Assembly: GCF_001902295.1 (NCBI RefSeq)
Contig: NZ_CP018335.1
Coordinates: 1,852,750 to 1,884,749 of the forward strand
From: Clostridium kluyveri
GTDB lineage: Bacteria; Bacillota; Clostridia; Clostridiales; Clostridiaceae
Reading direction: 5' to 3'
Length of the DNA stretch: 32,000 nucleotides
Shown piece after piece: positions 5,553-31,364 of this stretch. Numbering within the stretch: the first letter of the stretch is position 1; each line of letters starts with the position of its first letter. The notes below the pieces were generated by a model, which was not told the origin of the DNA, made no database searches, and saw nothing but the letters and a program-made list of their open reading frames with translations. The position numbers and the translations under genes are program-made.

Positions 5553-5676
5553 TGAAGTAGCAACTTTAAAATCCTAATTTACTATTACAAGCATAAAAAG
5601 CACCTAATTTCTTATTTGAGGTGACCCCTTAAAGTTAGACTTTATTGCGTATCAGTTTTTACTGGTACGCAATTTG

Positions 5677-6477
5677 TTATGCAATATTAAGCCAGATCCT
5701 GTATTCTACAGGACTCATCCAGTTTAATGATTGCTTAATTCTTCGTTCATTATAATATCGTATATATTCTTCAATAGCAGATTTCAACTCATCGTAATTA
5801 TAATAAACAACACCATAATACATTTCTTGTTTCATAATCCCAAAGAAGTTTTCCATTACTGAATTGTCATGGCAATTCCCTTTACGTGACATACTTTGAT
5901 ATATTCTGTTTGCTTCTAAAGCGTGTGCATATGCCTTCATCTGATAAGCCCAACCTTGGTCAGAATGAAAGGTTCTGCGATACTTGCAGTCAACAGTTAT
6001 TTCTATGGCTTTATTTAAAGCATTCATTATATTTACTGCGGAAGGATTCTGTGAAATTCCATAACTTATGATCTCTCGATTATACAAGTCCATAAATGGG
6101 TCAAGATAAAGTTTCTTTATTGCCATTCTTCCTTTTTCATCAACCTCATAATACTTAAATTCAGAAGTATCTGTAGTGATCTTTTGATGTGGAATACTCG
6201 TGCCAAATCGACGACGAAGCCTGTTTGGTGTGACCTTACCCACCTTACCTTTATATGAGCTATATTTTCTGCTCTTTCGGGTAAATGAAGTTACCTGAAT
6301 TCCCAATTTCTGAACAATCCGTTGTACTTTCTTGTGATTCACAGCTATCCCTTGTTTCTGCAATTTACCATAAATTCGTCTATATCCAAAATCTTTATGT
6401 TCTTTACGAATCTGAAGAATTAACTGTTCTAGTTCCTCATCTGGATTTTTACGATTAAATCTTTGTTGCCAGTACAT
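5677..6477 (-). CDS. IS3-family transposase OrfB (DDE/RNase H-fold), expressed as an OrfAB fusion by -1 frameshift
   Basis: DDE region (TDTSEF..., HSDQGWAY, NCHDNSVMENFFG). The -1 frame stays open upstream of the first ATG back to C-AAA-AAG at 6558-6564. The predicted fusion reads ...PQNKKARIIHSLRGEFKLKDILAITCYPKATYMYWQQ... Confidence 0.9.
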   Translation of the reverse strand: MYWQQRFNRKNPDEELEQLILQIRKEHKDFGYRRIYGKLQKQGIAVNHKKVQRIVQKLGIQVTSFTRKSRKYSSYKGKVGKVTPNRLRRRFGTSIPHQKITTDTSEFKYYEVDEKGRMAIKKLYLDPFMDLYNREIISYGISQNPSAVNIMNALNKAIEITVDCKYRRTFHSDQGWAYQMKAYAHALEANRIYQSMSRKGNCHDNSVMENFFGIMKQEMYYGVVYYNYDELKSAIEEYIRYYNERRIKQSLNWMSPVEYRIWLNIA

Positions 6478-6518
6478 ATATGTGGCTTTCGGATAACATG
6501 TAATTGCGAGAATATCTT

Positions 6519-7085
6519 TTAATTTGAATTCTCCTCGGAGGCTGTGGATGATTCTCGCTTTTTGTTCTGAGGTATTCCCTCTAAACGCAGCCTCCTCAGT
6601 TCTTTTAAATAGGCATTCTCGATTCGTAGTTTAAGATTTTCTTCTTCAAGTTGTTTAAGGTATTCTGCATCTGTATTTATTTTTCTACTCTTATCAGAAC
6701 TAATATCTTTCGGTTGTACCACTTGTGGTCGCCGCCCTTTCATTTTGGGTTTCAAGGCATCAGGACCAGCTATTCTGTAATCATTTACCCACTTGCTTAT
6801 TAATGCTGGATTATTTATTCCAACTTGTAGGGCTAATCCCTGATATGAAACTTCAGTTGTTAAGTATGATTCTACAACATGGAGCTTAAAATCTAAAGAG
6901 TAAGTTTGATTTTCTCGTTTTCTTATTAATCCATCAGACCCAAACGCATTGTATGCTGCAATCCATTTTCGTAAATCTTTTGTAGAAGGAATATTATATT
7001 TTTTTGATAGAAAAGAAACGCCTCCTGCACCTTCTAGATATTCTTGCACAACTTTCATCTTAAATTCATAACTATATTTTGCCAT
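6519..7085 (-). CDS. IS3-family transposase OrfA (double HTH plus leucine-zipper region)
   Basis: 188 aa with HTH-like N-terminal halves and a coiled-coil LKQLEEENLKLRIENAYLKEL. Ends just downstream of the slippery site CAAAAAG (6558-6564, minus strand). Confidence 0.9.
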   Translation of the reverse strand: MAKYSYEFKMKVVQEYLEGAGGVSFLSKKYNIPSTKDLRKWIAAYNAFGSDGLIRKRENQTYSLDFKLHVVESYLTTEVSYQGLALQVGINNPALISKWVNDYRIAGPDALKPKMKGRRPQVVQPKDISSDKSRKINTDAEYLKQLEEENLKLRIENAYLKELRRLRLEGIPQNKKRESSTASEENSN

Positions 7086-7448
7086 ATAAAAACCGACCTC
7101 CCATCAGCTAGCGTTTATGTCTAACTTCTGGGGGTCGGTTCATATTCCACATTAGGTGCTTATCTGTTTTTTTGTACGTTTTTGTATTTCTTTAAAAATA
7201 TCCCTTAGATAGTTTTTTATCTTTATGAATATAGACAATTTTGCTTTTTACACATTCATATTTATCTCAGGTTTTTTTCAACTTTTGATTTAACCCACTT
7301 TATGCTCACAGTTAAGAGGTCTAATAAATAAATTTTAAGGTGAGTTAATAAATCTTCATTTTATCTACATAACTCTGCTATATACTATACACGAATAATA
7401 AAAATTAAAAAATTTGACATGTTTTAATATTGAAAAGAGGTGTTTAGT

Positions 7449-8854: not shown

Positions 8855-8962
8855 AACATTTTTATAAGCATTTTTAAACAGAACAGGCAGCTTACCTTGT
8901 GGGTCAGCTGTCTATTTTGTGTTTGTTTTTTGAAAGACAAAAGATTAGTATTTTGTTATTAA

Positions 8963-9058
8963 GTGATTCAGAGGTTCAGGTGGAGTTTGCTATAGAGAAA
9001 TGCTTATTTCTACCTTTGAAAAAATGAAGTATTAGTAATTCTGGCCTTCGGATTAGAG
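8963..9058 (+). repeat. Copy 1 of an unexplained ~90-bp dispersed repeat (R2)
   Basis: AGGTTCAGGTGGAGTTTG...GAGAAATGC.TAT.TCTAC...TTT.AAA.AAAATG... is shared with 31365-31457 in the same orientation at roughly 75-80% identity. No conserved reading frame. Confidence 0.7.
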
Positions 9059-9063
9059 TGAAA

Positions 9064-9250
9064 TTATATCACTATATAACAAAATCATATCACTATATAA
9101 CGCATAATTGTCTTTAAAATATAGTTGAAGTTTTGATAATATAAGGCATTATAGCAATATCTAATTTTAAAGTTATATACACAGGGGCATATTGTTCTTG
9201 TACTTGTTATCCCATAAAATATGGATAGATAATAATTTTCATTTAATAAT
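9064..9250 (+). promoter_or_regulatory. Regulatory module P1: two perfect 15-bp direct repeats phased 21 bp apart, a sigma-A promoter and a Fur-like box
   Basis: ATATCACTATATAAC at 9066-9080 and 9087-9101. -35 TTGTTC (9192-9197), 17-nt spacer, -10 TAAAAT (9215-9220). aGATAATaATTtTCA at 9227-9241 matches 12/14 of the 7-1-7 Fur consensus TGATAATnATTATCA. Homologous to 29655-29842. Confidence 0.6.
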
Positions 9251-9300
9251 TTTTTGAAAAAATTATTTTGCACTAACAATATAATTTAGGGGGGAGCTAC

Positions 9301-12108
9301 ATGAAAGAAAAAGGTAAAAAAACTTTATCTGTTTACAGTATAATGTTACTATTGGTATTTAGTTTTATATTCTCGATAAATGTAAAAGCTGAAAATTCAT
9401 CATCAATAGGTATAAACAGGATAGGAGGAGCAGATAGATATGAAACAGCTGTAAAAATTGCCCAAGCAGGCTGGCAGTCATCTGATTATGCAATATTGGC
9501 AAACGGAGAGAATTATCCAGATGCCCTTTGTGCCGTTCCTTTAGCAAAAACTAAGGATGCTCCGGTGCTTCTGACCACAGGAAGTAATTTGAACCAGGAT
9601 TCACTGAATAAGATGAAAGAGCTAAAAGTTAAGCACGTAATTGTAGTTGGCGGAAAAGGAGCAATATCGGACAATATTATAAGTGACATAAAATCACAGG
9701 GCATATCTGATGTAGAAAGAATAGGTGGACAAAATAGATATGAAACTTCCGTAAAAATAGCTGAAAAGCTAGGGACTGTTACTAAGGCGGTTGTTACCAG
9801 CGGGGAGGGATATGCAGATGCACTTTCAGCATGTACTGCTGCGGCTATAGAGAAAATGCCAATACTTTTAACAAAGAATACCGATTTACCAGATGTAACA
9901 GCAGATTACATAAAATCAAATCCTCAAATAACCACAACTTATATAATAGGAGGAACGGGTTCTATAAGTACTTCTGTTGATAATGAACTTCAATATCAAA
10001 AGAGAATTTATGGTCTTGACAGATATGAAACAAATGCCGCAGTATTAAATGAATTTGCTTCAGATTTTGACTTCAAAAATGTTTATCTGGCACTGGGAAA
10101 TGGAGCTACAGGCAGTGAATTTGCAGATGCCCTTACTGGGGGAGCTCTAGCAGCTAAAATGAAAAGTCCTCTTGTAATAACAGGAAAAACTTTGAGTTCT
10201 GCTACAGAGAAATTTATTAAAGAAAAAATCTATAAAGACTGCAATCTTACAGTAATAGGTGGAACAGCTAATATATCTGATTCGCTGGCTCAACAAATTA
10301 GGGATTCCTCTGGGGCTTCTGAAACCTCTGAATCACCTACAGGCGGCAGCAGTAGTGGTGGAGGATCTGGAAGTTCAAGTTATAAAAATATTACTTCAGC
10401 AGTAAAAGAATATTCTTCCTATAAAGATATTGTAAGCAGTATAAACAATGGTGAATATTTTAAATTAGAAGATGATAATTCTGACACCATGAACCTACAA
10501 TTAAAAAAAGATAATGTAAATCCCATTCAAGGTGTATTTCAAAATGCTGTGGATGTATATACTAGTACAGGGACTGTAGATGAACAACAGATAAGATATG
10601 ATGTAGAAAAAGTAAATGAGGAATGGGATGTAATATATGGAAAAAATATTACCGTAAAAATTGGAGAAGATACTAAAAGTTTAAGTGCTTTTTTTGGAAG
10701 TTTAGGCTCCAAATATTTTGATAGTAATGGTAAATTAAATGCAGATATAATAGTAGAACAGGTAAATAAAAAGCTTGGAAGTGATTATGATTACGATGAT
10801 TTTAGGACAAATTTAATTGAAGGTATAAAAAACTATTTTGATAATAATTCATCATTAGAGAAGAATTCATTGCAACTTAAGATTATGGGATTGAAAGTAA
10901 ATAGCATTAAAAAAGGTACATCTACTTTGTATACTTCTACTTCTTATGGAAAAGATGCTTTAAATAAATTGATAGATATATTAATACCATCTGCAGATAC
11001 AGATATTACTGGAGTGTATACTATTTATATAGAAGGAAATAACTATATAAAAATTGATGTTAAAAATGCAGATACTGCGCAACCCGTAAAAATGGCAATG
11101 GATATTAACTATTATTTTGTAGAGAATTCAGAAGGGAAACTGGAAGTGTTTAATACATCAGATGGACAGGGAGTTAGTGTTAAATCAGGCAGTAAGGTTT
11201 ATGTACCGATGTTTGATAAAACCATTGACATACCTGGGGAAGGCGGATTGTTACAAGAACAGATAGATTGGATGACCAATAAAGAATTTTATACTTTTAC
11301 TGGAAGGGAAACTTCAGATAACTCTATGATTAAATCCATAAATCTCACAGAGGAAGACCCTGCTAAGTTTAATGAAGCGTATCCTGATGGGGATTTTAAA
11401 GCTCCGGTTCATTGTTTTGTAATAGAACTTAATGATACAGTGCCAACAGATGGTGCTCCAGTAACTTTCGATGCTGATTTTCAGGCCACAGAAGAAGGAT
11501 TAAAAGGATATAATGATCTAAATGGGGAAACAGAAGGATTGGCTTCCAGTATTAATTTTATATTCCAGGGCAAGCTTAATATAGCTTCTGCAGCACAACC
11601 TGTAAAAATGGCAATGGATATTAACTATTATTTTGTAGAGAATTCAGAAGGGAAACTGGAAGTGTTTAATACATCAGATGGACAGGGAGTTAGTGTTAAA
11701 TCAGGCAGTAAGGTTTATGTACCGATGTTTGATAAAACCATTGACATACCTGGGGAAGGCGGATTGTTACAAGAACAGATAGATTGGATGACCAATAAAG
11801 AATTTTATACTTTTACTGGAAGGGAAACTTCAGATAACTCTATGATTAAATCCATAAATCTCACAGAGGAAGACCCTGCTAAGTTTAATGAAGCGTATCC
11901 TGATGGGGATTTTAAAGCTCCGGTTCATTGTTTTGTAATAGAACTTAATGATACAGTGCCAACAGATGGTGCTGCAGTAACTTTCGATGCTGACTTTCAA
12001 GCCACAGAAGAAGGACTAAAAGGATATAATGATCTAAATGGGGAAACAGAAGGATTGGCTTCCAGTATTAATTTTATATTCCAGGGTAAGCTTAATATAA
12101 TTGATTAA
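9301..12108 (+). CDS. Secreted cell-wall-anchored surface protein: signal peptide, 3 CWB2 repeats, Gly/Ser linker, unknown domain, 2 x 172-aa repeat
   Basis: Signal peptide ending VKA|EN. Three CWB2-type units with GADRYETAVKIA, GGQNRYETSVKIA and GLDRYETNAAVL. Linker SGASETSESPTGGSSSGGGSGSSS. The C-terminal duplicated module begins AQPVKMAMDINYYF. Confidence 0.85.
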   Translation: MKEKGKKTLSVYSIMLLLVFSFIFSINVKAENSSSIGINRIGGADRYETAVKIAQAGWQSSDYAILANGENYPDALCAVPLAKTKDAPVLLTTGSNLNQDSLNKMKELKVKHVIVVGGKGAISDNIISDIKSQGISDVERIGGQNRYETSVKIAEKLGTVTKAVVTSGEGYADALSACTAAAIEKMPILLTKNTDLPDVTADYIKSNPQITTTYIIGGTGSISTSVDNELQYQKRIYGLDRYETNAAVLNEFASDFDFKNVYLALGNGATGSEFADALTGGALAAKMKSPLVITGKTLSSATEKFIKEKIYKDCNLTVIGGTANISDSLAQQIRDSSGASETSESPTGGSSSGGGSGSSSYKNITSAVKEYSSYKDIVSSINNGEYFKLEDDNSDTMNLQLKKDNVNPIQGVFQNAVDVYTSTGTVDEQQIRYDVEKVNEEWDVIYGKNITVKIGEDTKSLSAFFGSLGSKYFDSNGKLNADIIVEQVNKKLGSDYDYDDFRTNLIEGIKNYFDNNSSLEKNSLQLKIMGLKVNSIKKGTSTLYTSTSYGKDALNKLIDILIPSADTDITGVYTIYIEGNNYIKIDVKNADTAQPVKMAMDINYYFVENSEGKLEVFNTSDGQGVSVKSGSKVYVPMFDKTIDIPGEGGLLQEQIDWMTNKEFYTFTGRETSDNSMIKSINLTEEDPAKFNEAYPDGDFKAPVHCFVIELNDTVPTDGAPVTFDADFQATEEGLKGYNDLNGETEGLASSINFIFQGKLNIASAAQPVKMAMDINYYFVENSEGKLEVFNTSDGQGVSVKSGSKVYVPMFDKTIDIPGEGGLLQEQIDWMTNKEFYTFTGRETSDNSMIKSINLTEEDPAKFNEAYPDGDFKAPVHCFVIELNDTVPTDGAAVTFDADFQATEEGLKGYNDLNGETEGLASSINFIFQGKLNIID
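11077..12105 (+). repeat. In-frame tandem duplication, 2 x 516 bp, inside the surface-protein gene
   Basis: 11077-11592 versus 11593-12108: 7 substitutions before the last 3 codons (6 synonymous, 1 Pro to Ala). The central ~370 bp are identical. Confidence 0.95.
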
Positions 12109-12124
12109 ATATTTATAGAAAATT

Positions 12125-12198
12125 TTTAGGCGTATTTTAAAGATCTATTTTACATTTTTTAAAATCTTAAGTATCGTGAATTTCTAAATACGCCTAAA
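12125..12198 (+). repeat. Long inverted repeat (13-bp perfect arms, 48-nt spacer) between the surface-protein gene and adh; possible terminator or leader structure
   Basis: TTTAGGCGTATTT (12125-12137) and AAATACGCCTAAA (12186-12198), with an inner AAGAT/ATCTT pairing. A weak T-run lies ~10 nt downstream. Confidence 0.45.
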
Positions 12199-12283
12199 GT
12201 TATAGAATGTGTCTTTTTATATATTTATAATTGTAGTTTTTGAATTTTGAGATTTAAAATTTAAATTAAAGGGGAAATTATCT

Positions 12284-13453
12284 ATGAAAATTAACTTTGC
12301 AGCACCTAATAATGTAATATTAGAAAATAATGCTGTAAATAATATTGCTGCAGTTGTAAAACAGAAAAATGCAAAAAAGATTCTGTGTGTTTTTGGAGAA
12401 AGAATTAAAGCGACTGGTATTTCTGATATGATTATTGATACTTTAAAAAGCGAAAACGTAGATGTAATAACTTATGAGGGAGTAATTTCAGAACCTCCTA
12501 AATACATAGTAAAAGAAATTTATGAATTAGGCAGAGAAAAGCATATAGATGTCATAATAGCAATTGGAGGCGGAAGTACTATTGATGCAGCTAAAGCCGC
12601 GAATTTAATGCTAACTAATAATATGAATATAGAGGATATGTTGTTATATAAGAAGATAATTAAAAATAAAGGCAAATTTTTTATTGCAGTTCCTACTACA
12701 GCTGGTACAGGAAGTGAAGTAACTGGTGCAGCTGTTATAACTGATGAAAAACTAAAGAAAAAATTAATTCTAATTTCAAATTTTATAGTTCCAGATTTGG
12801 CCATAATTGATCCCATTTTAACATTAAAATTACCTAAAGATATAACTGTATCTACAGGTATAGATGTGTTTTCACATGCTTATGAAGCGTATACAAGCAG
12901 TAATGCTAATGATATGTCAGATACTCTAGCACTAAGAGCATTTAAAATTGTAGTGGATACATTACCCCAACTTGTTGATGATTTAAATAATGAAATTTTT
13001 AGAGAAAAAATGAGTTATGCGAGCATGTTGGCTGGCCTAGCTTTAAATGGGGCAGGATCTGGTATGGGACATACCATAGCACATTCCATAGGTGCTAAAT
13101 GGAATATAGCTCATGGGTATGCTTGTGCACTGGCATCGCCGGAATCTATTAAAAACTTGGCCTTGTATATCCCACATAAAGCAGAAAAATTACTATATAT
13201 ACTGAATGACAGTACACAATATGAATCCTTGGGAGAAGAATTAAGTGAACAATTTATGAAGTTTAATGAAAAAGTAGGGGTACCTAACATTGAGGAATTA
13301 GGGATAGATTCCTCCAAAAATTTAGATATAATAAATTCTATAGCAGATGATGTGATTAATATGACGGCTTTATTTGGAGGAGATATTACACAGATAGATA
13401 AAAACAAAATAATGGAACAATATTCATTAATATTAAATAGGATAATTTTTTAA
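12284..13453 (+). CDS. Iron-containing (group III) alcohol dehydrogenase family protein
   Basis: GGGSTIDAAKA, PTTAGTGSEVT and His-rich metal-site motifs (FSHAYEAY, GHTIAHSIG). GGGG RBS upstream. Confidence 0.9.
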   Translation: MKINFAAPNNVILENNAVNNIAAVVKQKNAKKILCVFGERIKATGISDMIIDTLKSENVDVITYEGVISEPPKYIVKEIYELGREKHIDVIIAIGGGSTIDAAKAANLMLTNNMNIEDMLLYKKIIKNKGKFFIAVPTTAGTGSEVTGAAVITDEKLKKKLILISNFIVPDLAIIDPILTLKLPKDITVSTGIDVFSHAYEAYTSSNANDMSDTLALRAFKIVVDTLPQLVDDLNNEIFREKMSYASMLAGLALNGAGSGMGHTIAHSIGAKWNIAHGYACALASPESIKNLALYIPHKAEKLLYILNDSTQYESLGEELSEQFMKFNEKVGVPNIEELGIDSSKNLDIINSIADDVINMTALFGGDITQIDKNKIMEQYSLILNRIIF

Positions 13454-13584
13454 ATTGATTTATCTAAATGGGGCAATTAGCCAATACTTCCATGTTATTC
13501 AAAGGTTTATTCAAAAAAGTGGTTTTATTATATTCAAAAATAAGGTAAAGTTGAAATATGTAGAAATATGTTGTATTATTTTAC

Positions 13585-13613
13585 TTTACTGATAATATTT
13601 TCAGTGATATAAT
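13585..13613 (+). promoter_or_regulatory. Near-consensus sigma-A promoter pointing rightward (TTTACT - 17 nt - TGaTATAAT)
   Basis: -35 TTTACT at 13585-13590, 17-nt spacer, extended -10 TGATATAAT at 13605-13613. Confidence 0.55.
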
Positions 13614-13668
13614 TTAGCATGTATTGATAATGACATTCATTATCAATACATGCTAAATTTATTTTTAC
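13611..13668. promoter_or_regulatory. Perfect 23-bp-arm palindrome containing a 17/19 Fur-box match; may also terminate adh transcripts
   Basis: AATTTAGCATGTATTGATAATGA-CAT-TCATTATCAATACATGCTAAATT (13611-13659), followed by TATTTTT. The core GATAATGACATTCATTATC (13626-13644) matches GATAATGATAATCATTATC at 17/19 positions. Confidence 0.55.
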
Positions 13669-13789
13669 AAAAAGTAAATTTAAAGAATTAATTGGCGAAT
13701 TGTCTTTTTAAATAAGCAGAAAGACCAACTATAATAAGTCAAGTACTTTTTAAAAAGAAGTTATATTAAGTTTATGATTTTAAAAACTG

Positions 13790-15330
13790 TATGACAAAAA
13801 GACTTGCACTGCTACAAGTTTGAAATGGTTATAATTGCAAAAAAATTATGAGGTTTCTTTAATCTCATAAGGTTTATTGTTTTTTAGAACAGCATAAGTG
13901 ATATGGCATAGTTTTCTGGAAACTGCACCAATACAGGTTAAATGATGTTTGCCTTCGACTCGTTTTTTCTGGTAGAAGGCATTTAAAACAGGATCATTGA
14001 ATGCAGCTACTAACGCAGCCTGGAACAAAGCTTTACGCAAGTAAGGCGAACCTCTTTTACTCATAACATTATGTATGTTTTCATATTCTCCTGATTGAGA
14101 AACAGAAGCATCAATACCAGCATAGGCAACGAGCTTTTTTGGTGAATCAAATTTATTAATATCACCTATTTCACCTAGTATTGTGGCACCAGTAACAGGA
14201 CCAATTCCTGGAATTGTTGTAATAGGTGATTCTAAAGAAACCATAAGTTTTTTGATTTCAGTTTCGGTATCTTTTACCTGCTGTTCAATGAAAGACATCT
14301 GCTCAATTAGAGCTTTTAGCTGGAAGGAGAAACTATCCTTGCAGAAGGTAATACCAAAGGAATTGGAGGCAGTTGATTTTAACTTTTCAGCTTTTGCGTC
14401 ACCTATTTTCTTGCGACTTAGTTCTGCAAGAAGTTGTGCCAGAGTATCAGCAGAAATAGATTCAAAATCGCTGGGTGAAGAGAACTGTAAAAGAATCTCT
14501 TTTGAGGTCTTACCAAATATGTTTGAAAAAATAGATTGATATTCAGGAAATACCTGATCAAGGACACAAATAATTTTTCGCTTTAAATCGGAAATGGATG
14601 ATACTAAGTATCCACGGAATCTCGTTAAGGTTCTTAAGGAAAAAATGGTTTCATCAGAAAGCACTGTTTCAACAAAAGAGCCGTAGCGTATTAAGTCTGC
14701 GATTAAAATAGAGTCAATAGTGTCATTCTTTCTTTTACGGATTTCAGTACCTTTACGCCATCCATCTGTTTGAATTGGATTGATGACATGAATAAGGAAA
14801 CCTTTATCGTATAAAAAAGAATAAACGGCTAACCAATAGTGCCCAGTTGCTTCCATACCAATTTCGAAATTAGCAGGATTATCAGAATGGCTGGTAAGCT
14901 TAGAAAATAAGGCTTCGCCACCCTCAGAAGTATTAGGAAAAGAAAATGCCTTGAATGCAATCTTACCTGCATCATCCATCATGGAAGCAACATGATTATT
15001 TTTACCAATATCAATACCTAAGTAAAACATAATATCACACCTTTAAAAGAGTATTTTAGATTGGGAATCCCCTTATCTAGTAAGCGTCACTACCTCGTGA
15101 TAAATACGAAGAAATACCAAATGGTATTCAACATCCAACTCATTCGCGAACTGCTTATTAGAAAGAGGTATCAGTCTTTCGAGTACGAGTTCTAAGACTC
15201 AAGGAGAAAGCGATAATCCTCTCAATCTAATAAAACAATTATCTCTCAATTAGAGAGAAAACTAAAGAATAGGTTATAGGTTTTCCTAATGAAATAACCT
15301 AAATATATTATACGAGTATTCCTGTAATAA
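13790..15330 (-). mobile_element. IS110-family insertion sequence no. 1 (boundaries approximate)
   Basis: Complete DEDD-type transposase gene with a ~300-nt GC-richer non-coding region 5' of it (15031-~15330) and a short 3' flank. No terminal IRs, as expected for this family, so the ends could not be fixed by eye. Confidence 0.55.
13846..15030 (-). CDS. IS110-family transposase (DEDD N-terminal domain plus Transposase_20-type C-terminal domain)
   Basis: YLGIDIGKNNH, MEATGHYW, KNDTIDSILIADL, PGIGPVTGATILGEIGDINKF, MSKRGSPYLRKALFQAA. 394 aa. Confidence 0.92.
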   Translation of the reverse strand: MFYLGIDIGKNNHVASMMDDAGKIAFKAFSFPNTSEGGEALFSKLTSHSDNPANFEIGMEATGHYWLAVYSFLYDKGFLIHVINPIQTDGWRKGTEIRKRKNDTIDSILIADLIRYGSFVETVLSDETIFSLRTLTRFRGYLVSSISDLKRKIICVLDQVFPEYQSIFSNIFGKTSKEILLQFSSPSDFESISADTLAQLLAELSRKKIGDAKAEKLKSTASNSFGITFCKDSFSFQLKALIEQMSFIEQQVKDTETEIKKLMVSLESPITTIPGIGPVTGATILGEIGDINKFDSPKKLVAYAGIDASVSQSGEYENIHNVMSKRGSPYLRKALFQAALVAAFNDPVLNAFYQKKRVEGKHHLTCIGAVSRKLCHITYAVLKNNKPYEIKETS

Positions 15331-16950
15331 AGAGTTTTAGACTTTGAATGAAATAAAAAAACCTGATATAAATATATTGTGTCACTTGCAAGAAGACAAC
15401 AACAATCTATATCAGGAGGAAAACAATATGAATAATCGAATTATAGTTCCTAACACATTAATATTAGGGATAGACATAGCAAAGGAAAATCACTATGGTC
15501 AATTTGTAGTAAATGGTGAATATATAAAAAAGCCGTTCCTTATAAAGAATACCAGAGAATCTTTCGAATGTCTATTAGATTCAATCAGACAATTAAAGGC
15601 GAAATATAACTTAGATTATGTATTAGTAGGAATGGAGCCAACAGGTCACTATTGGAAGAATCTTGCTTACTACTTAAAAAGTCAAGGGATAGAGCTATGC
15701 TTGGTCAATCCATATCATGTTAATAAAATTAAGGAGCTTGAAGATAATAGTCCAACTAAGAATGACAAAAAAGATGCCAAGATTATTTCTAAACTTATAT
15801 ATCAAGGTCAATACCTAAACTGCATGTTTGAGGAAGAACTCTACGTAAATCTTCGATTATGCAGCAACAATAGGCAAGAGCTAAAAAAACAGTTTATCTC
15901 AGAAAAAGTAAGACTAATAGCGCTATTAGATGAATACTTTCCAGAATTTAAAAAGATGTTTTCAGATATCTTAGGAAAGTCCGCTTTATGTATACTGAAA
16001 ACATGTCCTTTCCCACAAGATATAGTGAATATAGGAGTTTCTGAGCTTACTCAAAAGCTTCTAGATGCTACACATAATCGTGTTGGATTTAAGAAAGCAG
16101 AGCTGGTTTTTAATGCAGCTAAAACTTCAATAGGAGTGCCTGTAGGGCTTGAAGGGGCCAGATATAGATTAAGGCTTATTTTAAGGCAATTAGAAGCTTT
16201 ACAAAAGGAACTAGATGATGTGGAAAAGCTCATGGAAGAATATCTTTTGCAGACAGGTTATTCAGAATATTTACTTAGCATAAAAGGTGTAGGCATAGTA
16301 ACAGCTGCGGGTTTTCTAGCTGAAATTGGAGACATATCAAAATATGACAGCTATAAGCAAATACAGAAAGTGGCAGGACTTAACTTGAAAGAAACCAGCT
16401 CTGGCATGAAAAAAGGTAAAACTAAAATTAGTAAAAGAGGTCGTTCAAATTTAAGAAATATTCTATATCAGGCAGCAACTGTTATGGTAGCTAAGAATAC
16501 TGCATTTAAAGAAATATATACCCATTTAACGAAAAGACAGGAAAATCAATTAACCGGAAAACAAGCAATAGTTGCACTAAGTGTAAGACTTATAAAAGTT
16601 ATGTACACTTTATGCAAGAAAAAAACAACATATACACATGACAAAGTTCATGGGTTGACAAGTTATGGTATATTGAAATTTATAGTTCTTTAAGAGTAAG
16701 GTAAAGCGCGTTCAAACCCCCATAAGGGCTTAATTGACCCAGTATACGAGGATTAATGCTAGCACCTGCTCTAAAATGCAGAACGAAGGAATGTAGAGAC
16801 ATAGATATGTACTCCGTGAGACATGGTAGGGTAAGCATTAGAGCTATATAGGTGTGTTTCCTTCAAAATATTGGAATATCACTTACACTCTTATGCACAC
16901 GTTCAACCTTCTCCATCCAGTATTACCTATATATTCAATATACTCACATA
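15331..16950 (+). mobile_element. IS110-family insertion sequence no. 2, IS1111-like layout (boundaries approximate)
   Basis: Complete transposase gene with a short 5' flank and a ~250-nt GC-richer non-coding region 3' of it (16694-~16950). A 9-bp inverted repeat CCTGATATA/TATATCAGG (15362-15370 and 15408-15416) lies in the 5' leader. Confidence 0.5.
15428..16693 (+). CDS. IS110-family transposase
   Basis: LGIDIAKENHYG, MEPTGHYW, KNDKKDAKIISKL, IKGVGIVTAAGFLAEIGDISKY, ISKRGRSNLRNILYQAA. ATG 15428 has an AGGAGG RBS. The TTG 15344 extension in the ORF track has none. Confidence 0.9.
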   Translation: MNNRIIVPNTLILGIDIAKENHYGQFVVNGEYIKKPFLIKNTRESFECLLDSIRQLKAKYNLDYVLVGMEPTGHYWKNLAYYLKSQGIELCLVNPYHVNKIKELEDNSPTKNDKKDAKIISKLIYQGQYLNCMFEEELYVNLRLCSNNRQELKKQFISEKVRLIALLDEYFPEFKKMFSDILGKSALCILKTCPFPQDIVNIGVSELTQKLLDATHNRVGFKKAELVFNAAKTSIGVPVGLEGARYRLRLILRQLEALQKELDDVEKLMEEYLLQTGYSEYLLSIKGVGIVTAAGFLAEIGDISKYDSYKQIQKVAGLNLKETSSGMKKGKTKISKRGRSNLRNILYQAATVMVAKNTAFKEIYTHLTKRQENQLTGKQAIVALSVRLIKVMYTLCKKKTTYTHDKVHGLTSYGILKFIVL

Positions 16951-17044
16951 TTTAAATTTAACCACTTGTTTATAAATAATGAAATTCTATGAAAATAGAA
17001 GTAAATAAAAGATAAATTAAAATTTATTGAGGTAGGAGAAAAAA

Positions 17045-17793
17045 ATGACAAAAAATATTAAACTTTTTTGTTTGCCATATGCTGGGGGCACATCTATGTA
17101 TTATATGAAATGGAAACAATATTTATGCAGCAATATTGAAGTATATCCTCTAGAAATGGCAGGAAGGGGAAAAAGATTTGGTTCAAATTTGTTTGAGAAT
17201 ATGTATGATGTTGTAAAGGATCTATTTAGTATATTAGCAAAAGAATTAGATAAATTAGGTGACTTTGAATATGCATTTTTTGGACATAGCATGGGAACTG
17301 TTATAATTTATGAACTAATGAAAAAAATAAAACAATATAATTACAAAGAACCCATACATATATTTATGTCTGGTAGAGTTCCACCTAGCTTTCAGGAAAA
17401 AAAATTATTTACAATTTAAGTTATGATGAATTTAAAAGAGAAATATCAAATTTAGGGGGAGTACCTGATGACATAATTAATAACAATGATGTATTTGATA
17501 TATTTCTCCCTATATTAAGAGCAGATTACAAAATAATCGAAACTTATAAATTTTCAAAATCCCCTAAATGGAATTTTGACATTTCAGTATTAAATGGGAG
17601 AAATGATCCAGAGGTTGAGGATTATTATATTTCTAAATGGGACATGTATACAAATAAAAAATGTAATTTTTATTTATTTGATGGAGGTCATTTCTTTATT
17701 AATGAAAATACAGTTGAAGTTGTAGAGAAAATAAATAATATTCTTATTAGAAATTTAGGAGAAAAATCTTTTTTCAAGGAGGCTAAAATTTAG
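17045..17793 (+). pseudogene. Type II thioesterase (GrsT/TE-II family) interrupted by a frameshift in an A8 run
   Basis: N-terminal part in frame 1 (LFCLPYAGGTSMYY, GHSMG) stops at 17419. The C-terminal part (LSYDEFKREISNLGGVPDD..., LPILRADYK, GGHFF) continues in another frame to TAG 17791-17793. One extra A in A8 (17397-17404) restores a single ~249-aa ORF. Confidence 0.85.
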
Positions 17794-18776
17794 TGTTTAA
17801 CAATGAAAAGTTTTTTTGGTCACCTGCGGCAAGATGGGAAAAAAAAGATGGTCAGGTAAAGATTGAAGTATTTTGCTATAAAGATTATATTGTTGAGTTA
17901 TTTCCTGAATTCTATTTTTTTACACAGAAAGGTGTTTATGTAAATGACTTAATTGATAAATTTCCGAAATATGATAAGGACAGATTAAAAAGTTTTATAC
18001 AGGATTTAATTAGAAAAAAGATATTAGTTGATTCTCCACTTATACCTCATGAATTATTTTATAGTGGAAATTACCTTTTTCAAAATAAACATAGTGAAAA
18101 TATAAAATATGATAAATTAGAATTTGAAAATTTTAAGAGTATGCAGTTAAATAGAAATTACAAAACGCCTAAGGGTCTGAAGATAAATTTATATAGTGAT
18201 GAGCAATATCCCTATTGTATAAGTGAACGAAAAACATGCAGAAGTTTTAATACAAATGAAATAATTAGTTTTGAAGTATTCTCAAAATTAATAGCTGTTT
18301 TTAGACAAAGAAGAATTAATGGACAAATTAAATATTACTATGCTAGTGCTGGAGGACTTTACCCTATAGACATATATATTTATATAAAGGAGAAGAGAGT
18401 AGAAAATTTAAAACAAGGTCTTTATTATTATAGTCCTTTAGATAATTCAATAAATATTGTAGATGAATGTTGTCATGTAAACAAAAATGCACACTATTTT
18501 ATGAATCAATCTATATTTAATCAATCGGCTTTTTCAATTTTTTTTATTTATAATATGGAAGTTACAATGCCTAAATATGGTGGTATCGGATATTTATATT
18601 CGTGTATAGATATAGGTATAATGGTAAGTTCACTTACTTTTGTTGCAGGACTATATAATATTGGTTTATGTTCTATAGGAGATATGAATTTTCATAAAAT
18701 AGAAAAATATTTTCAGCTTAATAAAAATCAAGTTTATATACATACAGTGGAATTAGGACTGAAGTTAGAAGATTAA
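17793..18776 (+). CDS. SagB/McbC-type (nitroreductase-fold, FMN) dehydrogenase; probable azoline oxidase
   Basis: RKTCRSF, YYASAGGLYPIDIYIYI, GLYYYSP and a C-terminal GD...F pattern typical of the SagB/ThcOx family. The GTG start overlaps the TE-II stop (TAGTG). AAGGAGG RBS. Family call is by motif only. Confidence 0.7.
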   Translation: MFNNEKFFWSPAARWEKKDGQVKIEVFCYKDYIVELFPEFYFFTQKGVYVNDLIDKFPKYDKDRLKSFIQDLIRKKILVDSPLIPHELFYSGNYLFQNKHSENIKYDKLEFENFKSMQLNRNYKTPKGLKINLYSDEQYPYCISERKTCRSFNTNEIISFEVFSKLIAVFRQRRINGQIKYYYASAGGLYPIDIYIYIKEKRVENLKQGLYYYSPLDNSINIVDECCHVNKNAHYFMNQSIFNQSAFSIFFIYNMEVTMPKYGGIGYLYSCIDIGIMVSSLTFVAGLYNIGLCSIGDMNFHKIEKYFQLNKNQVYIHTVELGLKLED

Positions 18777-18819
18777 AGTTATTACATTGCTGTAAAATTT
18801 ATGGAAGGAGTATTACGAA

Positions 18820-21800
18820 ATGGATTCTTATGTAAGATCGGAGAAGCTTGAAATCAAAAATTTTCCAAAAGAATTGTCGACTTTATTAAAAATAGCTGGT
18901 GACTTTTCCAGAATAAATGGAAGAGGGATATATTTTATTGAAGAAGATGAATCGGAAATATTTTTGCCGTATTATAAATTGTATGAAAATGCAGTAAGAT
19001 TATGCAGTGGATTACAGAAATTAGGTGTAAAAAGGGGAGATAAGTTAATATTTCAGTTAAAAAGTGAATTTAATTTTATAAATATGTTTTGGGCATGCAT
19101 AGTAGGAGGATATATACCGGTTCCTCTCCCAATTTCAAATATATATTCTTATAATTCACAAGATCTAGTTAGATTTTTAAATGTTACAGAGCAGCTATCA
19201 CATCCTAAAATTATTTCTGAAAAATTATTTCAAGAGTTCTTCAATGAAGGTGCATACAGTAATTTAACTGTAATATATTTTGAAGATATTGATAAATCCT
19301 ATGAACAGAATAATAAAATTCAGCTGCCTTTGCCATCTGATATTGCTTTTATTCAATTTTCCTCGGGAAGTACAGGAAATCCTAAAGGGGTTATACTTAC
19401 ACATAATAATTTAATTCATAATATATTTCAAATTAATGAAAAAAGTAAAAGTACCAATATGGATTTTATGGCTAATTGGATGCCACTTACCCATAATCTG
19501 GGATTAATCGCTCTTCATATTGCACCTTTAGGTGCTTTTAGTAATCAAATTAAGTTCAATACAGAGCTATTTATTAAAAAACCTGAATTATTTATGAAAA
19601 AAATAACTATTTATAAAGCTACTATGTCGGGCTTCCCTAATTTTGCATTATCCTTGCTTTTAGAAAGAATACCAGATGATGAATCTCAAAATTATGATTT
19701 ATCTCATCTCAGGCTTATTTATAACGGTGCAGAACCTATATCAAATAATGTAATTCAAAAATTCAATAAAAAGTTTTCCAAATGGTATTTAAATAAAAAG
19801 GCTATGCATGCTACCTATGGAATGGCAGAAGCAAGTGTTATCATCTCTCTTCAGGATATGGATGATTCTATTATCAGTCATAAAATTATAAGAAATGAAT
19901 TTTCGTTAAATAACAATATTATATATTCAGAAGACAATGAAGATACTATAGAATTTGTTGATGTGGGATATCTGCTGCCAGAAATGGAAGTCAAAGTATT
20001 GGATGATGATGATATTTTATTGGAAAATGAAAAGGTAGGTAATATTCTGGTAAAGGGTCCTAATATAACATCTGGATATATTAATGATGATGGAATGAAT
20101 GAAAAATTATTTCTAGATGGATTTCTAAGAACGGGAGATTTAGGATTTGTTAAAGATGGAAGATTGGTAATAACAGGACGCAGAAGAGATTTGATCTTTT
20201 TTAATGGGCAGAATTTCTATGCTCATGATATAGAACATTTATGTGAAGAAATTGATGAAGTTGATTTTGGACAAGTGGCTGCATGTGGGGTTACAAATTA
20301 TAAAAATGGTAGTGAGGAATTAATAATTTTCATACAATTTAGGGAGGAAATTAAAAATTTTAGTGAAGCTACCTTAAGAATAAAAGAATATGTAAATAGA
20401 AGAATAGGACAAAGTATTACCCATATATTGCCTGTAGAATATATACCTAAAACTGCAAGTGGGAAGATACAAAGGCAGGAGCTTGGACAGAGGTATTTGA
20501 ATGGCGAATTTCATGATATCATTTTAATGATAAATGAAGAAATAAAAAACTGTAATAATAAAAATAATACAGCAAGAAATAAAATAGATTTTGATTTAAT
20601 AAAGTTATGGGGCAGAATATTGAACTTGGAAAACATACGAATTCAGGATGATTTTTTTAAACTTGGAGGAGATTCTCTGAAATTAATTCAAATATGTTAT
20701 GAAATAAGTAATATATATAAAGTTGATATAAATTCAAGTGAGTTTATAAAGTTAGGTAATATTTTAAATATAAGTGATTATATTCAAAATAATAAAAATT
20801 TAATAAGTGAACAAAAATATCCTGTATCAGCACCCGATACTAAAAATCTTAATGTTCCATTTCCTTTATCCGAAGTACAGTCTGCCTATTTTACAGGGAG
20901 AAACAGTGGATTTGAAATGGGAGGGGTATCAACTCATATATATTATGAAATAGAAACAAAGCTGGATATAGATAAATTTAACCAAAGTCTCAATAAGGTA
21001 ATAAAACATCAGCCTATGTTGAGGGCCATAATTCTTGAAAGTGGCCAGCAGAAAATACTTGAAAGTGTGCCAAAATACAATATAAAAGTGGAAGATATAA
21101 GTGAACTCAATTATGACAGCCAGCAGGAAAGAATATTGGAAGAAAGAGATAGGATGTCTCACTATATATTTAAAACAGATATATGGCCTCTATTTGAATT
21201 CAAAGCTTTTAAGACAAATATCAACAAATACTATATGCTTATAGGATTTGATCTTTTGATATCAGATGGGACTAGCATGCGTATATTGGTGAAAGAAATA
21301 ATAGAAAATTATGATTGCTTTCATAAAGGCTACCAAAAGCTTAAGTTTAATTTTAGAGATTATGTAACGGCATGCGAAGAATTTAAGATATCAAAAGTTT
21401 ATGAAAATGATAAAAAATATTGGATGGAAAAACTCAAGGATTTTCCACAGGCACCTAAACTGCCTTTAAAGCAGGAGCCTTCAGAGGTGGCAAGCCCTCA
21501 TTTCAAAAGACAGAATAAAATTATAAGTAAAAATATCTGGGAGAATATAAAGAAAAAGGCCAAAGAAAATAATATAACTCCTTCCGTACTTTTGTGTACA
21601 GCCTATGCACAGATACTAGGCCACTGGAGCAATGAACCTCATCATGCGATAAATGTGACTGTATTTACAAGATATCCTTTCCATGAGGATGTAAATAAAA
21701 TCATAGGGGATTTTACATCAGTAATGTTACTTGATGTAGATTTAAAAACCGGTACATCTTTTTGGGAAAAGGCATCAGAGGTTCAAAGTTCTATGATGGA

Positions 21801-22401
21801 AGCGCTGGAGCACAGACACTACGATGGAATTAATTTTATAAGGGATATATCAAAATATAATGGATTGGGAGCAAAAGCTGTAATGCCTATAGTGTTTACA
21901 AGTCTACTGTTTTCCATGGACAATGAGGAAAAAGGAGTAGGATTTACAGAACTTGGGGATATAAAAATGGGAGTAAGCCAGACATCACAGGTATATCTGG
22001 ATTATCAGGTAATGGAGATAGGGGGAAATTTATCTATAACATGGGACTATGTAGAAGAATTGTTTGAAGAAGATATGATAAATACCATGTTCCAGCAGTA
22101 TGTAAAGCTGGTGGAAAGTTTACTGGAACACAGGGAATATAGACTTCAGGCAGAAGAAGAGACAATAAAATTTATAGATAATTATAACCACAGGGAAGAA
22201 TTCATACCTGAAACCACCCTTCAGGAGCTGTTTATGAAAAAGGCAAAGGAATGCCCTGAAAATACAGCTCTCATATTTGAAGACAGAAGTATGAACTATA
22301 GGGAACTGGATATTAAATCAAACCAGGTAGCCCATTACTTAAAACAGCAGGGATTTGGCAGCAGTGACTTTATAGGCATAGGTAGTGTAAAAAGTTTATG
22401 A
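18820..22401 (+). CDS. NRPS megasynthetase, 5' fragment (FAAL - carrier - heterocyclisation (Cy) - start of A domain); native coding sequence ends at 22380 where an IS is inserted
   Basis: FAAL motifs FSSGSTGNPKGV, YGMAEA, TGRRRDLIFFNGQNFYAHDIE. Carrier LGGDSL. Cy motifs FPLSEVQSAYFTGR, RAIILESGQQ, DLLISDGTS, GDFTS, PIVFTSLL, SQTSQVYLDYQ. A1 motif MNYRELD. The last 7 codons plus the stop are IS-derived. Confidence 0.92.
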   Translation: MDSYVRSEKLEIKNFPKELSTLLKIAGDFSRINGRGIYFIEEDESEIFLPYYKLYENAVRLCSGLQKLGVKRGDKLIFQLKSEFNFINMFWACIVGGYIPVPLPISNIYSYNSQDLVRFLNVTEQLSHPKIISEKLFQEFFNEGAYSNLTVIYFEDIDKSYEQNNKIQLPLPSDIAFIQFSSGSTGNPKGVILTHNNLIHNIFQINEKSKSTNMDFMANWMPLTHNLGLIALHIAPLGAFSNQIKFNTELFIKKPELFMKKITIYKATMSGFPNFALSLLLERIPDDESQNYDLSHLRLIYNGAEPISNNVIQKFNKKFSKWYLNKKAMHATYGMAEASVIISLQDMDDSIISHKIIRNEFSLNNNIIYSEDNEDTIEFVDVGYLLPEMEVKVLDDDDILLENEKVGNILVKGPNITSGYINDDGMNEKLFLDGFLRTGDLGFVKDGRLVITGRRRDLIFFNGQNFYAHDIEHLCEEIDEVDFGQVAACGVTNYKNGSEELIIFIQFREEIKNFSEATLRIKEYVNRRIGQSITHILPVEYIPKTASGKIQRQELGQRYLNGEFHDIILMINEEIKNCNNKNNTARNKIDFDLIKLWGRILNLENIRIQDDFFKLGGDSLKLIQICYEISNIYKVDINSSEFIKLGNILNISDYIQNNKNLISEQKYPVSAPDTKNLNVPFPLSEVQSAYFTGRNSGFEMGGVSTHIYYEIETKLDIDKFNQSLNKVIKHQPMLRAIILESGQQKILESVPKYNIKVEDISELNYDSQQERILEERDRMSHYIFKTDIWPLFEFKAFKTNINKYYMLIGFDLLISDGTSMRILVKEIIENYDCFHKGYQKLKFNFRDYVTACEEFKISKVYENDKKYWMEKLKDFPQAPKLPLKQEPSEVASPHFKRQNKIISKNIWENIKKKAKENNITPSVLLCTAYAQILGHWSNEPHHAINVTVFTRYPFHEDVNKIIGDFTSVMLLDVDLKTGTSFWEKASEVQSSMMEALEHRHYDGINFIRDISKYNGLGAKAVMPIVFTSLLFSMDNEEKGVGFTELGDIKMGVSQTSQVYLDYQVMEIGGNLSITWDYVEELFEEDMINTMFQQYVKLVESLLEHREYRLQAEEETIKFIDNYNHREEFIPETTLQELFMKKAKECPENTALIFEDRSMNYRELDIKSNQVAHYLKQQGFGSSDFIGIGSVKSL

Positions 22402-24225: not shown

Positions 24226-24233
24226 TAGGCATA

Positions 24234-27053: not shown

Positions 27054-27115
27054 TTCAATGCCATGACAAGGGGCTTACAATACCTTGTACACAATATATT
27101 TTAAGGAGATATAAG

Positions 27116-28417
27116 ATGAATCAAATAAAACAAGATAAGAAGAAGTTTAAAATGACCTATTGTATAGGAACAAATTTTGATCCAGAATTGATTGAAATAA
27201 TTTCAAAGTATAATAAACAAAATATCTTTAATTCTGTTTTCGGTAAATTAAAAAGTGACTTCATTGGCGGAGGTAGAGCATCTACATTTCTTCCTGATAT
27301 ATCTATGAAAGAATTAAAAAGTTATATTAAATTATGTCATGATAATGATTTAGCATTTAATTATCTAATAAATCCTATGTGTATGGAAAATCAAGAAGTT
27401 GAATCGAGCAGTCATATGAAAATATTAAGGTATCTTTATGAACTTATTAACATAGGAATAGATTCTATTACTATAAATTCTCCTTATTTATGTGAAATAA
27501 TAAAAAAACAGTTCCCGGATTTAAAGGTAGTTATAGGATTATATGCTTATATTTACGATATACATCATGTACGATATTGGACAAACCTTGGCGCTGATGA
27601 GATAACTTTAGGACATAAAATTAACAGGGATTTTGAAGCATTAGAAAAAATGCTAATTTATACAAGAGATAAGAATGTTTCAATGAGACTTATTGCTAAT
27701 AATGTATGTCTGCATTCATGTCCTTATGCTGTAATGCATGGGACAGGGCAATCTCATGCAAGTCAAAAATGTAATGCATCAAAAGCAGAATATATAGACT
27801 ATTGTATATTGAAATGCTTAAATGAGAAAGTGAGAAATCCCGTTAATTTAATTAGTTCAGATTGGATTAGGCCTGAAGATATAGGATATTATGAGGAACT
27901 TTGCAAAAAGACAAATAATTATAAATTATCTATAAAACTTGTAGAAAGAACTAAGACTACAGAATTTCTTACAAGAGTTATTAAAGCTTATGCTACCCGC
28001 TCTTATGATGGAAATCTACTTGATATACTTTTATGGCCTAAAATGAGTGAAATGTTAAAAGTCCAAAAAACACCAGAGCAGATGAAATTACTTGCAAGTC
28101 AATACAATGTAGATGAGCTTACCAAATATTTTGATATATTTAATCTTCCTGAAGTATATATTGATAATAAAAAATTAAATGGATTTTTAGATAAATTCGT
28201 AAAAAATTTTGAATGTGATAAAAAACTTTGTGCTGGAATGAATAATCAAGAGTTATCAGAGGGTAGTAAAGGTGTATCTGAAATTATATGTTCCTACTGT
28301 AATGAATGGGTAAATAAAGCTATTTCTTATGACAATGATGAAGTAAAAAAATGGCTGAATAAATATGATGATGTTGAAATGGGATTAAAAGAAAGTAGAA
28401 TATTTTCTAAAATTTAA
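27116..28417 (+). CDS. U32-family (collagenase/UbiU-UbiV-like) protein, tentative
   Basis: N-terminus MTYCIGTNFDPE... resembles the UbiV/YhbV-type start. Alternating beta/alpha TIM-like pattern (DSITINSPYL, VVIGLYAY, ADEITLGH) and a Cys cluster CLHSCPY...C...C..C. AAGGAG RBS. Needs HMM confirmation. Confidence 0.45.
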   Translation: MNQIKQDKKKFKMTYCIGTNFDPELIEIISKYNKQNIFNSVFGKLKSDFIGGGRASTFLPDISMKELKSYIKLCHDNDLAFNYLINPMCMENQEVESSSHMKILRYLYELINIGIDSITINSPYLCEIIKKQFPDLKVVIGLYAYIYDIHHVRYWTNLGADEITLGHKINRDFEALEKMLIYTRDKNVSMRLIANNVCLHSCPYAVMHGTGQSHASQKCNASKAEYIDYCILKCLNEKVRNPVNLISSDWIRPEDIGYYEELCKKTNNYKLSIKLVERTKTTEFLTRVIKAYATRSYDGNLLDILLWPKMSEMLKVQKTPEQMKLLASQYNVDELTKYFDIFNLPEVYIDNKKLNGFLDKFVKNFECDKKLCAGMNNQELSEGSKGVSEIICSYCNEWVNKAISYDNDEVKKWLNKYDDVEMGLKESRIFSKI

Positions 28418-31342: not shown

Positions 31343-31364
31343 AAAGAACAGATGTAACAATAAT

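Follow-up and report, generated by a model that had tools for sequence, protein, structure and literature searches.

A probable Fur-type operator inside a 49-bp palindrome, cut off from its nonribosomal peptide synthetase operon by two IS110-family elements in Clostridium kluyveri

The stretch of Clostridium kluyveri DNA analyzed here (contig NZ_CP018335.1, positions 1,852,750 to 1,884,749; 32,000 nucleotides, called the window and numbered from its first letter) carries an Fe-dependent alcohol dehydrogenase gene (adh), a spacer, two adjoining insertion sequences (IS) of the IS110 family, and a thioesterase II (TE-II) pseudogene that opens an operon for a nonribosomal peptide synthetase (NRPS). 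This work deals with a segment of the spacer, 13585-13668, in which a promoter-like site runs into a long perfect palindrome and a T-run (Table 1). Comparison with IS-free DNA of the same species shows that this segment is the native control region of the TE-II / SagB-type oxidase / NRPS / U32 peptidase operon. Judged from its sequence, it is probably a Fur-type operator together with the likely promoter of that operon, and it probably doubles as the terminator of adh.

The IS-free comparison set consisted of the contigs L001-L005 and L137-L139 and the complete genome CP110856 (L135), all from C. kluyveri. The contigs L001-L005 encode exactly the adh protein of the window and lack the IS. The IS-free DNA aligns to 12057-13723 of the window and then from 17034 onward, with a 2-nt overlap (AG), and the inserted DNA amounts to 3312 bp, which is made up of the two IS110-family elements. 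Without the insertion, 279 bp of spacer separate the adh stop codon from an intact TE-II gene of 249 aa, and the genes of a SagB/ThcOx dehydrogenase, a single NRPS of 2141 aa, and a U32 peptidase come next. Past the peptidase lie the divergent gene of an AraC regulator and then that of a MatE transporter. In this arrangement the palindrome ends 73 nt and the Fur core 85 nt before the ATG of TE-II, and the core begins about 10 nt after the -10-like hexamer. The box adjoins a promoter-like site and an operon in the IS-free genomes, and this adjacency is lost in the window, where the operon is 3.4 kb away.

The initial annotation, made from the letters of the window, had described the segment as the orphaned control region of the NRPS operon, and the IS-free genomes bear this out structurally, with the palindrome directly upstream of TE-II and NRPS. 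It had named an unrelated gene beside the palindrome in IS-free relatives as the outcome that would speak against it; these relatives were inspected, and the palindrome adjoins the NRPS operon instead. The same annotation had expected a distance of about 200 bp to TE-II, which does not agree with the 73 nt found. It rightly took the TE-II gene at 17045 as the next native gene after the IS pair. Its statement that nothing but the transposase of element no. 2 is encoded on the + strand for 3.4 kb stands in so far as only the two IS110 transposases occur there, that of no. 1 lying on the - strand. No homologue of adh was found beside SagB in 80 related loci, while the TE-II/SagB/NRPS synteny recurs, and adh is therefore a neighbor and not a gene of the cluster.

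The palindrome itself was confirmed exactly as first described, with arms of 23 bp and a total length of 49 bp, and its center has the sequence of a Fur box. The 19-mer GATAATGACATTCATTATC agrees with the Fur consensus GATAATGATAATCATTATC at 17/19 positions, as the initial annotation had also claimed, and 0.03 matches with three mismatches or fewer are expected per window. The 25-nt extension of the core has no mismatch to ATTGATAATGANNNTCATTATCAAT; even when three mismatches are allowed, the expectation is 0.01 matches per window. The palindrome center also agrees with ATTGATAATGA-NNN-TCATTATCAAT at each of its 22 fixed positions, which makes the Fur identity stronger than first annotated. 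Because only 0.01 matches are expected per window, it is very unlikely that the match arose by chance as the stem of an arbitrary terminator. The core also contains overlapping 7-1-7 inverted repeats (TGATAATnATTATCA), with 2 and 3 mismatches in the 15-mers at 13631 and 13625, respectively.

The pattern ATTGATAATGANNNTCAYTATCAAT, which keeps the 22 fixed positions of the C. kluyveri site and leaves the loop free, was scanned against one genome per species of bacteria and archaea. It matched at least 120 loci across phyla including Bacillota, Pseudomonadota, and Spirochaetota. Among the matches listed (at least 120 loci), the central triplet is mostly TAA or TTA, which is the canonical Fur box. 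An open reading frame starts within 250 nt at 106 of the 120 matches listed (median, 40 nt). Pfam was used to check seven of the proteins encoded downstream, and five of them are related to iron or metals (Nramp, FeoA, a Peripla_BP_2 binding protein, an iron-type solute-binding protein, and a DhbA-like dehydrogenase); of the other two, one is tRNA-synthetase-like and the other matched no Pfam family. By this comparison, only the three central bases distinguish the C. kluyveri site from the extended, pan-bacterial Fur consensus.

Among described boxes, the Fur box of the Bacillus dhbA type, ATTGATAATGATAATCATTATCAAT, is identical to the C. kluyveri box at 22/25 positions. Both consist of two overlapping 7-1-7 inverted repeats, and both are located at a promoter (a putative one in C. 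kluyveri) or immediately after it, with fewer than 100 nt between the box and the opening gene of an NRPS operon. The C. kluyveri box differs in its central triplet, which is CAT instead of TAA or TTA, in the 49-bp perfect palindrome that surrounds it and the U-run that goes with this, and in being separated from the operon by 3.3 kb of IS DNA in this strain. Moreover, the C. kluyveri NRPS begins with a fatty-acyl-AMP-ligase-type domain and ends with a reductase, unlike the catecholate or salicylate siderophore design. For C. difficile, a Fur consensus TGATAATVAWHWTCA has been published (PMC6311696). The 15-mer at 13625-13639 and the reverse complement of 13631-13645 each agree with it at 14/15 positions (counted by hand), and with a weight matrix derived from the C. 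difficile site table (PMC6311696) the two C. kluyveri 15-mers scored 11.8 and 13.5, compared to a median of 12.6 for the training sites. This consensus is loose and belongs to the Fur of another species, and four other 15-mers of the window outscore those of the palindrome. One further Fur-like sequence, GTTGATAATGAACTTCAATATCAAA at 9976-10000, lies within the open reading frame of a cell-wall protein; it agrees with the extended Fur pattern at 19/22 positions, its 15-mer has the top score of the window with the C. difficile-derived matrix, and it may be a chance or an intragenic site. The literature search yielded no paper dealing with this locus, the Fur of C. kluyveri, or Fur boxes within terminators.

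As RNA, the palindrome folds with -28.9 kcal/mol compared to -6.05 ± 2.35 kcal/mol for shuffled sequences (z = -9.7). The T-run TATTTTTAC immediately follows the stem, as the initial annotation had noted, and the U-rich tract UAUUUUUA begins 1 nt past the stem and 158 nt after the adh stop codon, on the same strand as adh. A terminator scan found this hairpin with its U-run as the only + strand terminator-like site between adh and the IS junction. The segment thus shares with intrinsic terminators a stable stem-loop, an immediate U-run, and a position downstream of a gene on the same coding strand, whereas its stem is much longer and more A/U-rich, contains the operator, and overlaps the -10-like hexamer. 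Since adh is an independent gene, termination of its transcripts at the palindrome is plausible.

A transcript starting inside the palindrome would fold differently. In a fold of 13619-13700, a transcript from 13619 retains a 15-bp hairpin at its very 5' end that stops 8 nt short of the U-run. The same fold contains a second inverted repeat of A and U only, which extends from the final 6 nt of the palindrome across the T-run and can pair the T-run with the A-run that follows; the U-run of transcripts that start within the palindrome could be sequestered in this way. The proposed escape of operon transcripts from termination is structurally coherent in these folds. Rfam gave nothing real in 13000-17500 at E-values up to 1 and nothing at the gathering score in the whole window. 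A riboswitch or known RNA leader was rejected, as there was no Rfam match, and no convincing small open reading frame spans the palindrome.

The promoter-like site consists of TTTACT, a 17-nt gap, and a TG-extended -10 hexamer, with a predicted start at about 13619-13621, within the left arm of the palindrome. The site is present at 13585-13613 as initially annotated, but calling it near-consensus was an overstatement, since the -35 hexamer TTTACT agrees with the consensus at only 4/6 positions and such sites occur at chance density. An upstream site, TTGAAA-17-TATTAT (13551-13579), has an equal score of 10/12. The short repeats reported upstream were found again, with three copies of TATTCAAA and two of GAAATATGT; the tandem GAAATATGT is possibly an activator site, which is pure inference.

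Five natural haplotypes of the segment were compared, all from one species at about 99.7% identity. The palindrome is perfect in the window and in the IS-free contig L004, while each of the three other haplotypes carries one uncompensated mismatch. T13640C lies within the Fur box and is a variant common among the scan matches listed. T13613C (CP110856, also contig L138) and C13653A (contig L137) lie in the outer left and right arms, respectively. The 25-nt Fur pattern is kept in all five haplotypes, and two of the three single-nucleotide polymorphisms (SNPs) in the palindrome fall in the outer arms. This distribution fits with the core being the constrained part, with numbers too small for proof. 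The C13653A haplotype has also lost 23 nt between two copies of TATTCAAA (at 1478 of L137, equivalent to 13508-13530), as slippage between direct repeats would give.

Taken together, the motifs suggest the following mechanism, in which iron repression, promoter activity, termination of adh, and a start inside the left arm are all inferred from sequence motifs only. Iron-loaded Fur dimers would bind the 25-bp box ATTGATAATGAcatTCATTATCAAT. The TG-extended -10 hexamer (TATAAT, 13608-13613) predicts a transcription start about 3-5 nt before the first base of this box. The bound Fur would block initiation or early elongation, so that iron limitation would be required for expression of the operon. 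The outer 12 bp of each arm would turn the operator into a 23-bp hairpin with a U-run, most likely an intrinsic terminator for adh transcripts, while a transcript from about 13620 would keep the 15-bp 5'-terminal hairpin, 8 nt away from the U-run, and read on. In this strain, the putative operator and promoter sit 3.3 kb from the operon.

Table 1. Features in and around the segment 13585-13668 (positions in the window).
Feature	Position	Strand	Details
adh, Fe-dependent alcohol dehydrogenase gene	12284-13453	+	Pfam Fe-ADH
Three copies of TATTCAAA	starts 13496, 13508, 13531 (span 13496-13538)	+	sequence search
Tandem GAAATATGT-a-GAAATATGT	13553-13571 (starts 13553 and 13563)	+	upstream of the -35 hexamer
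Promoter-like site TTTACT-17 nt-TGaTATAAT	13585-13613	+	10/12 with TG; -35 at 13585-13590; TG-a-TATAAT at 13605-13613
49-bp perfect palindrome	13611-13659	.	arms 13611-13633 and 13637-13659, 23 nt each, 100% complementary; 3-nt loop CAT
Extended Fur box ATTGATAATGAcatTCATTATCAAT	13623-13647	.	classical 19-mer at 13626-13644; 22/22 fixed pattern positions
Second A/U-only inverted repeat TAAATTTATTTTT-ACA-AAAAGTAAATTTA	13654-13682	+	fold of 13619-13700; can pair the T-run with the following A-run
T-run TATTTTTAC	13660-13668	+	directly after the stem; with the hairpin, a terminator-like site for adh-derived transcripts
AG dinucleotide, left insertion junction	13722-13723	.	recurs at 15315-15316 and 17034-17035
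IS110-family element no. 1, 1591 bp	13724-15314	-	transposase 13846-15030; Pfam DEDD_Tnp_IS110 and Transposase_20; long 5' non-coding region
IS110-family element no. 2, 1717 bp	15317-17033	+	transposase 15344/15425-16693; Pfam; 340-nt 3' non-coding region
Right half of the split ribosome-binding site GAGAAAAAA and TE-II pseudogene	17036-17793	+	gene start 17045
Rest of the operon: SagB/ThcOx dehydrogenase, NRPS, U32 peptidase	17793-28417	+	third IS at 22381-24225 splits the NRPS gene

Several observations weigh against this interpretation of the segment as operator, promoter, and terminator in one. With regard to Fur, the central triplet CAT is absent among the matches listed (at least 120 loci), although the central bases do vary there. 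No strong Fur box was found upstream in 80 homologous SagB/NRPS loci of other organisms, taken from metagenomes; the only 19-mer match with three mismatches or fewer in the SagB loci lies downstream of the gene, and the 15-mer matches are in coding DNA or far off. This cluster family as a whole therefore does not conserve Fur control. The NRPS, judged by its fatty-acyl-AMP-ligase-type starter, is no obvious siderophore enzyme. With regard to the promoter, such sites occur in the window at chance density (38 found vs 32.8 ± 6.0 expected; for TGNTATAAT, 9 found vs 4.9 ± 2.2 expected), and the T13613C allele changes the -10 hexamer from TATAAT to TATAAC in the otherwise intact locus of CP110856. 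With regard to the terminator, the hairpin does not have the typical geometry of a short, G+C-rich stem; it has 23 pairs of which only 5 are G-C, and 23 bp is atypically long for a terminator stem. The G+C content is 22% and T-rich tails are not rare in such DNA, where by our estimate a T-rich tail lies beside a stem by chance in about 20% of cases. Finally, SNPs are no sparser in the palindrome (3 in 49 nt) than elsewhere in the spacer (6 in 235 nt), and none of the palindrome SNPs is compensated.

These points leave room for other explanations. The palindrome could be the intrinsic terminator of adh and nothing else, with the Fur likeness as a chance product of an AT-rich stem. The stable hairpin with its adjacent U-run is terminator-like by scan, adh has no other terminator candidate, and the homologous clusters elsewhere are without Fur boxes. 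However, an arbitrary stem would then have to spell ATTGATAATGA...TCATTATCAAT exactly, with 0.01 matches expected even at three mismatches. The same 22 positions define known Fur boxes at no fewer than 120 loci, and the distance to the next operon is a normal one for an operator, so we consider this explanation very improbable. The idea of a leader terminator or attenuator leaves the exact Fur consensus unexplained, and treats the Fur-like sequence as secondary. Transcription would start further upstream, e.g., at TTGAAA-17-TATTAT, and most transcripts would be stopped in the full hairpin, now part of the 5' leader, unless an antitermination factor acts. The equal score of the upstream promoter-like site agrees with this, as do the repeats TATTCAAA and GAAATATGT just upstream, which could bind a factor, and the T13613C allele, which harms the downstream -10 hexamer in an otherwise intact locus. 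Yet there was no Rfam match, no alternative antiterminator fold was seen, and the cluster contains no antiterminator gene, which makes an attenuator quite unlikely.

A different repressor might also read the site, either a Fur-family paralogue (Zur-, PerR-, or Mur-like) or a cluster-specific regulator that recognizes the whole 49-bp palindrome. The palindrome is far longer than a Fur box, its central triplet CAT is unusual, and the product is unlike a classical siderophore. But the half-sites TGATAAT/ATTATCA are the Fur-specific version, as judged from the boxes of Bacillus subtilis Fur, PerR, and Zur, and the sole regulator of the cluster is of the AraC type, whose members usually bind direct repeats and not long palindromes. 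In addition, two of the three natural SNPs lie in the outer arms, which a reader of the whole palindrome would need. Another repressor is thus unlikely, if somewhat less so than an attenuator. More credible, though still doubtful, is the possibility that only the 25-bp core is functional and that the outer 12 bp of each arm are a mutational by-product, generated when an inverted repeat templates its own extension by strand switching in replication. Extended palindromes are also found at the Fur boxes of other genomes (at least 6 bp in 15/119 cases vs 0.54 expected), most of them without a T-run, and the outer arms hold two of the three natural SNPs. On the other side, the U-run follows the stem exactly here and adh needs a terminator, and the scan pattern, which required perfect 11+11 symmetry, may enrich symmetric contexts.

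The probable Fur-type operator of C. kluyveri is accordingly not alone in being nested in a longer palindrome. Complementarity beyond the 25-nt core was counted at the 119 non-redundant Fur boxes among the matches listed (loci L015-L134), with randomly re-paired left and right flanks as the expectation; since the scan pattern itself demanded perfect symmetry, this sample may be biased. Of the 15 boxes extended by at least 6 bp, 10 (10/119 in all) are extended by at least 8 bp, compared to 0.29 expected. The longest extension among the matches listed was 11 bp, while the C. kluyveri site reaches 12 bp. The extended cases come from Legionella, Neisseriaceae, and several Bacillota and form perfect palindromes of 37-47 bp, with a T-rich tail in 4/15. 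Examples of such nested boxes are found at L036 5490, L023 4154, L121 874, and L125 6828. The outer arms may therefore be part of a wider phenomenon, either functional or caused by palindrome-extending mutation, and need not have been selected as a terminator. A bolder reading, which we regard as rather improbable, combines these functions: one segment would be the Fur operator, the terminator of the upstream gene, and the 5'-terminal hairpin of the operon transcript, and could be an instance of a wider, undescribed habit that hints at a hairpin- or cruciform-dependent layer of Fur control or at palindrome-extending mutation at strong operators. Fur boxes at NRPS promoters are routine and the locus does not represent a new kind of system; the wider question is why many strong Fur boxes nest in much longer perfect palindromes.

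The two elements that separate the control region from its operon have the features of the IS110 family. Pfam PF01548 and PF02371 were found in both transposases, which are of the DEDD type. Neither element has terminal inverted repeats, the target is sequence-specific, and a short core, AG, is shared by all three junctions. The insertion point lies within the Shine-Dalgarno sequence of TE-II, gcagaaAG/GAGaaaaaaATG (the stroke marks the insertion), and the target is CAGAA-AG-GAGAAA, the TE-II ribosome-binding site. The ends of element no. 1 were set against an independent, 97.8%-identical copy (contigs L142-L144; 2716-4306 in L142), which is inserted in TTCCACAGAA-AG-GAGATAAGAG, 13 nt before a TTG start codon. 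The target motif CAGAAAGGAGA is common to the insertion in the window and to this copy, and can be written as CAGAA-AG-GAGA(A/T)A, 9-13 nt before the start codon. An exact-protein look-up of the element no. 2 transposase with both start codons returned no record, and the ends of this element therefore rest on the empty site and on the boundary of element no. 1.

The 5' non-coding region of element no. 1 holds CTTTCTCCTT, which is identical to 9-10 nt of the target. In IS621-type elements, the guide of the bridge RNA would look like this kind of target identity, and IS110 relatives of the IS900 type insert at ribosome-binding sites. CTTTCTCCTT is therefore a candidate for the guide of a bridge-type RNA. 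The C. kluyveri elements resemble IS900 and IS621 in the DEDD transposase, the lack of terminal inverted repeats, and the 2-nt shared core. A further likeness is that two independent insertions have used the same target of 11-13 nt, in each case within a Shine-Dalgarno sequence. The likeness to IS621 is limited in that Rfam gave no bridge RNA match in the window. Most likely, element no. 1 was inserted first, guided by the sequence of the TE-II ribosome-binding site, and the second element would then have entered at the same AG; this order is read from the sequence. The palindrome was also considered as the target of the IS and rejected, since the insertion point is 64 bp downstream and the target of element no. 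1 is the ribosome-binding site.

Further changes have affected the operon in this strain. In the TE-II gene, a run of nine A is shortened to eight at about 17397, and the resulting frameshift, which also occurs in contigs L140 and L141, leaves 124 aa instead of 249. Compared to CP110856, four IS insertions are found in the 32 kb, at 5617-7138 (IS3-type), at 13724-17033 (the two IS110-family elements), and at 22381-24225, the last with a zinc-ribbon/DDE transposase and an 8-bp duplication. The frameshift and the extra IS show that the cluster is being inactivated in this strain. This is natural silencing of a cluster, in which a Shine-Dalgarno-targeting IS110-family element cut the operon from its promoter and operator, and a frameshift and a further IS insertion then followed.

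The NRPS contains a fatty-acyl-AMP-ligase-type domain, a carrier, a heterocyclisation domain, an adenylation domain, a second carrier, and a reductase. Visual inspection of the translation gave FPLSEVQSAYFTGR and DLLISDGTS as the heterocyclisation motifs. Together with the SagB oxidase, this architecture predicts an acyl-thiazole aldehyde or alcohol and no classical siderophore. C. kluyveri is known to have a putative siderophore cluster, CKL_1504-1523, which is yersiniabactin-like and distinct from the one in the window (PMC3672683). If the proposed Fur control is true, the cluster in the window would be switched on by iron limitation, which would suggest how IS-free strains, and only these, might be cultured to find its product. 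Synteny around homologues of TE-II was tried for a comparison of upstream regions and discarded, since beyond C. kluyveri the closest homologues share no more than 63% identity and belong to unrelated clusters. Within the NRPS gene, about 750 bp (21212-21963, vs 13420-14172 of L135) gave no BLAST alignment, while the flanks are more than 99% identical and the directly adjoining segments of 418 and 545 bp are 96-98% identical. This may be a recombined or diverged segment around the adenylation domain.

Repeats connect the region of the cell-wall-binding protein gene with that of the MatE gene adjacent to the cluster. A 64-nt repeat (84% identical) is found at 9188-9251 and 29778-29841, upstream of these two genes. 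It is an apparent shared promoter module, with the -35 hexamers TTGTAC and TTGATA, a 17-nt gap, and the -10 hexamers TATGGA and TATGAA, followed immediately by AGATAATAATTTTCA, which agrees with the Fur 7-1-7 motif at 12/14 positions. The Fur-like AGATAATAATTTTCA upstream of the MatE exporter gene is possibly a second site and gives mild support to Fur control of the locus. More repeats are common to the two regions, namely 9061-9127 with 29673-29692 and 8958-9026 with 31360-31428. Within the cell-wall-binding protein gene, a 300-nt direct repeat (97% identical) at 11060-11359 and 11576-11875 duplicates a C-terminal segment of the protein.

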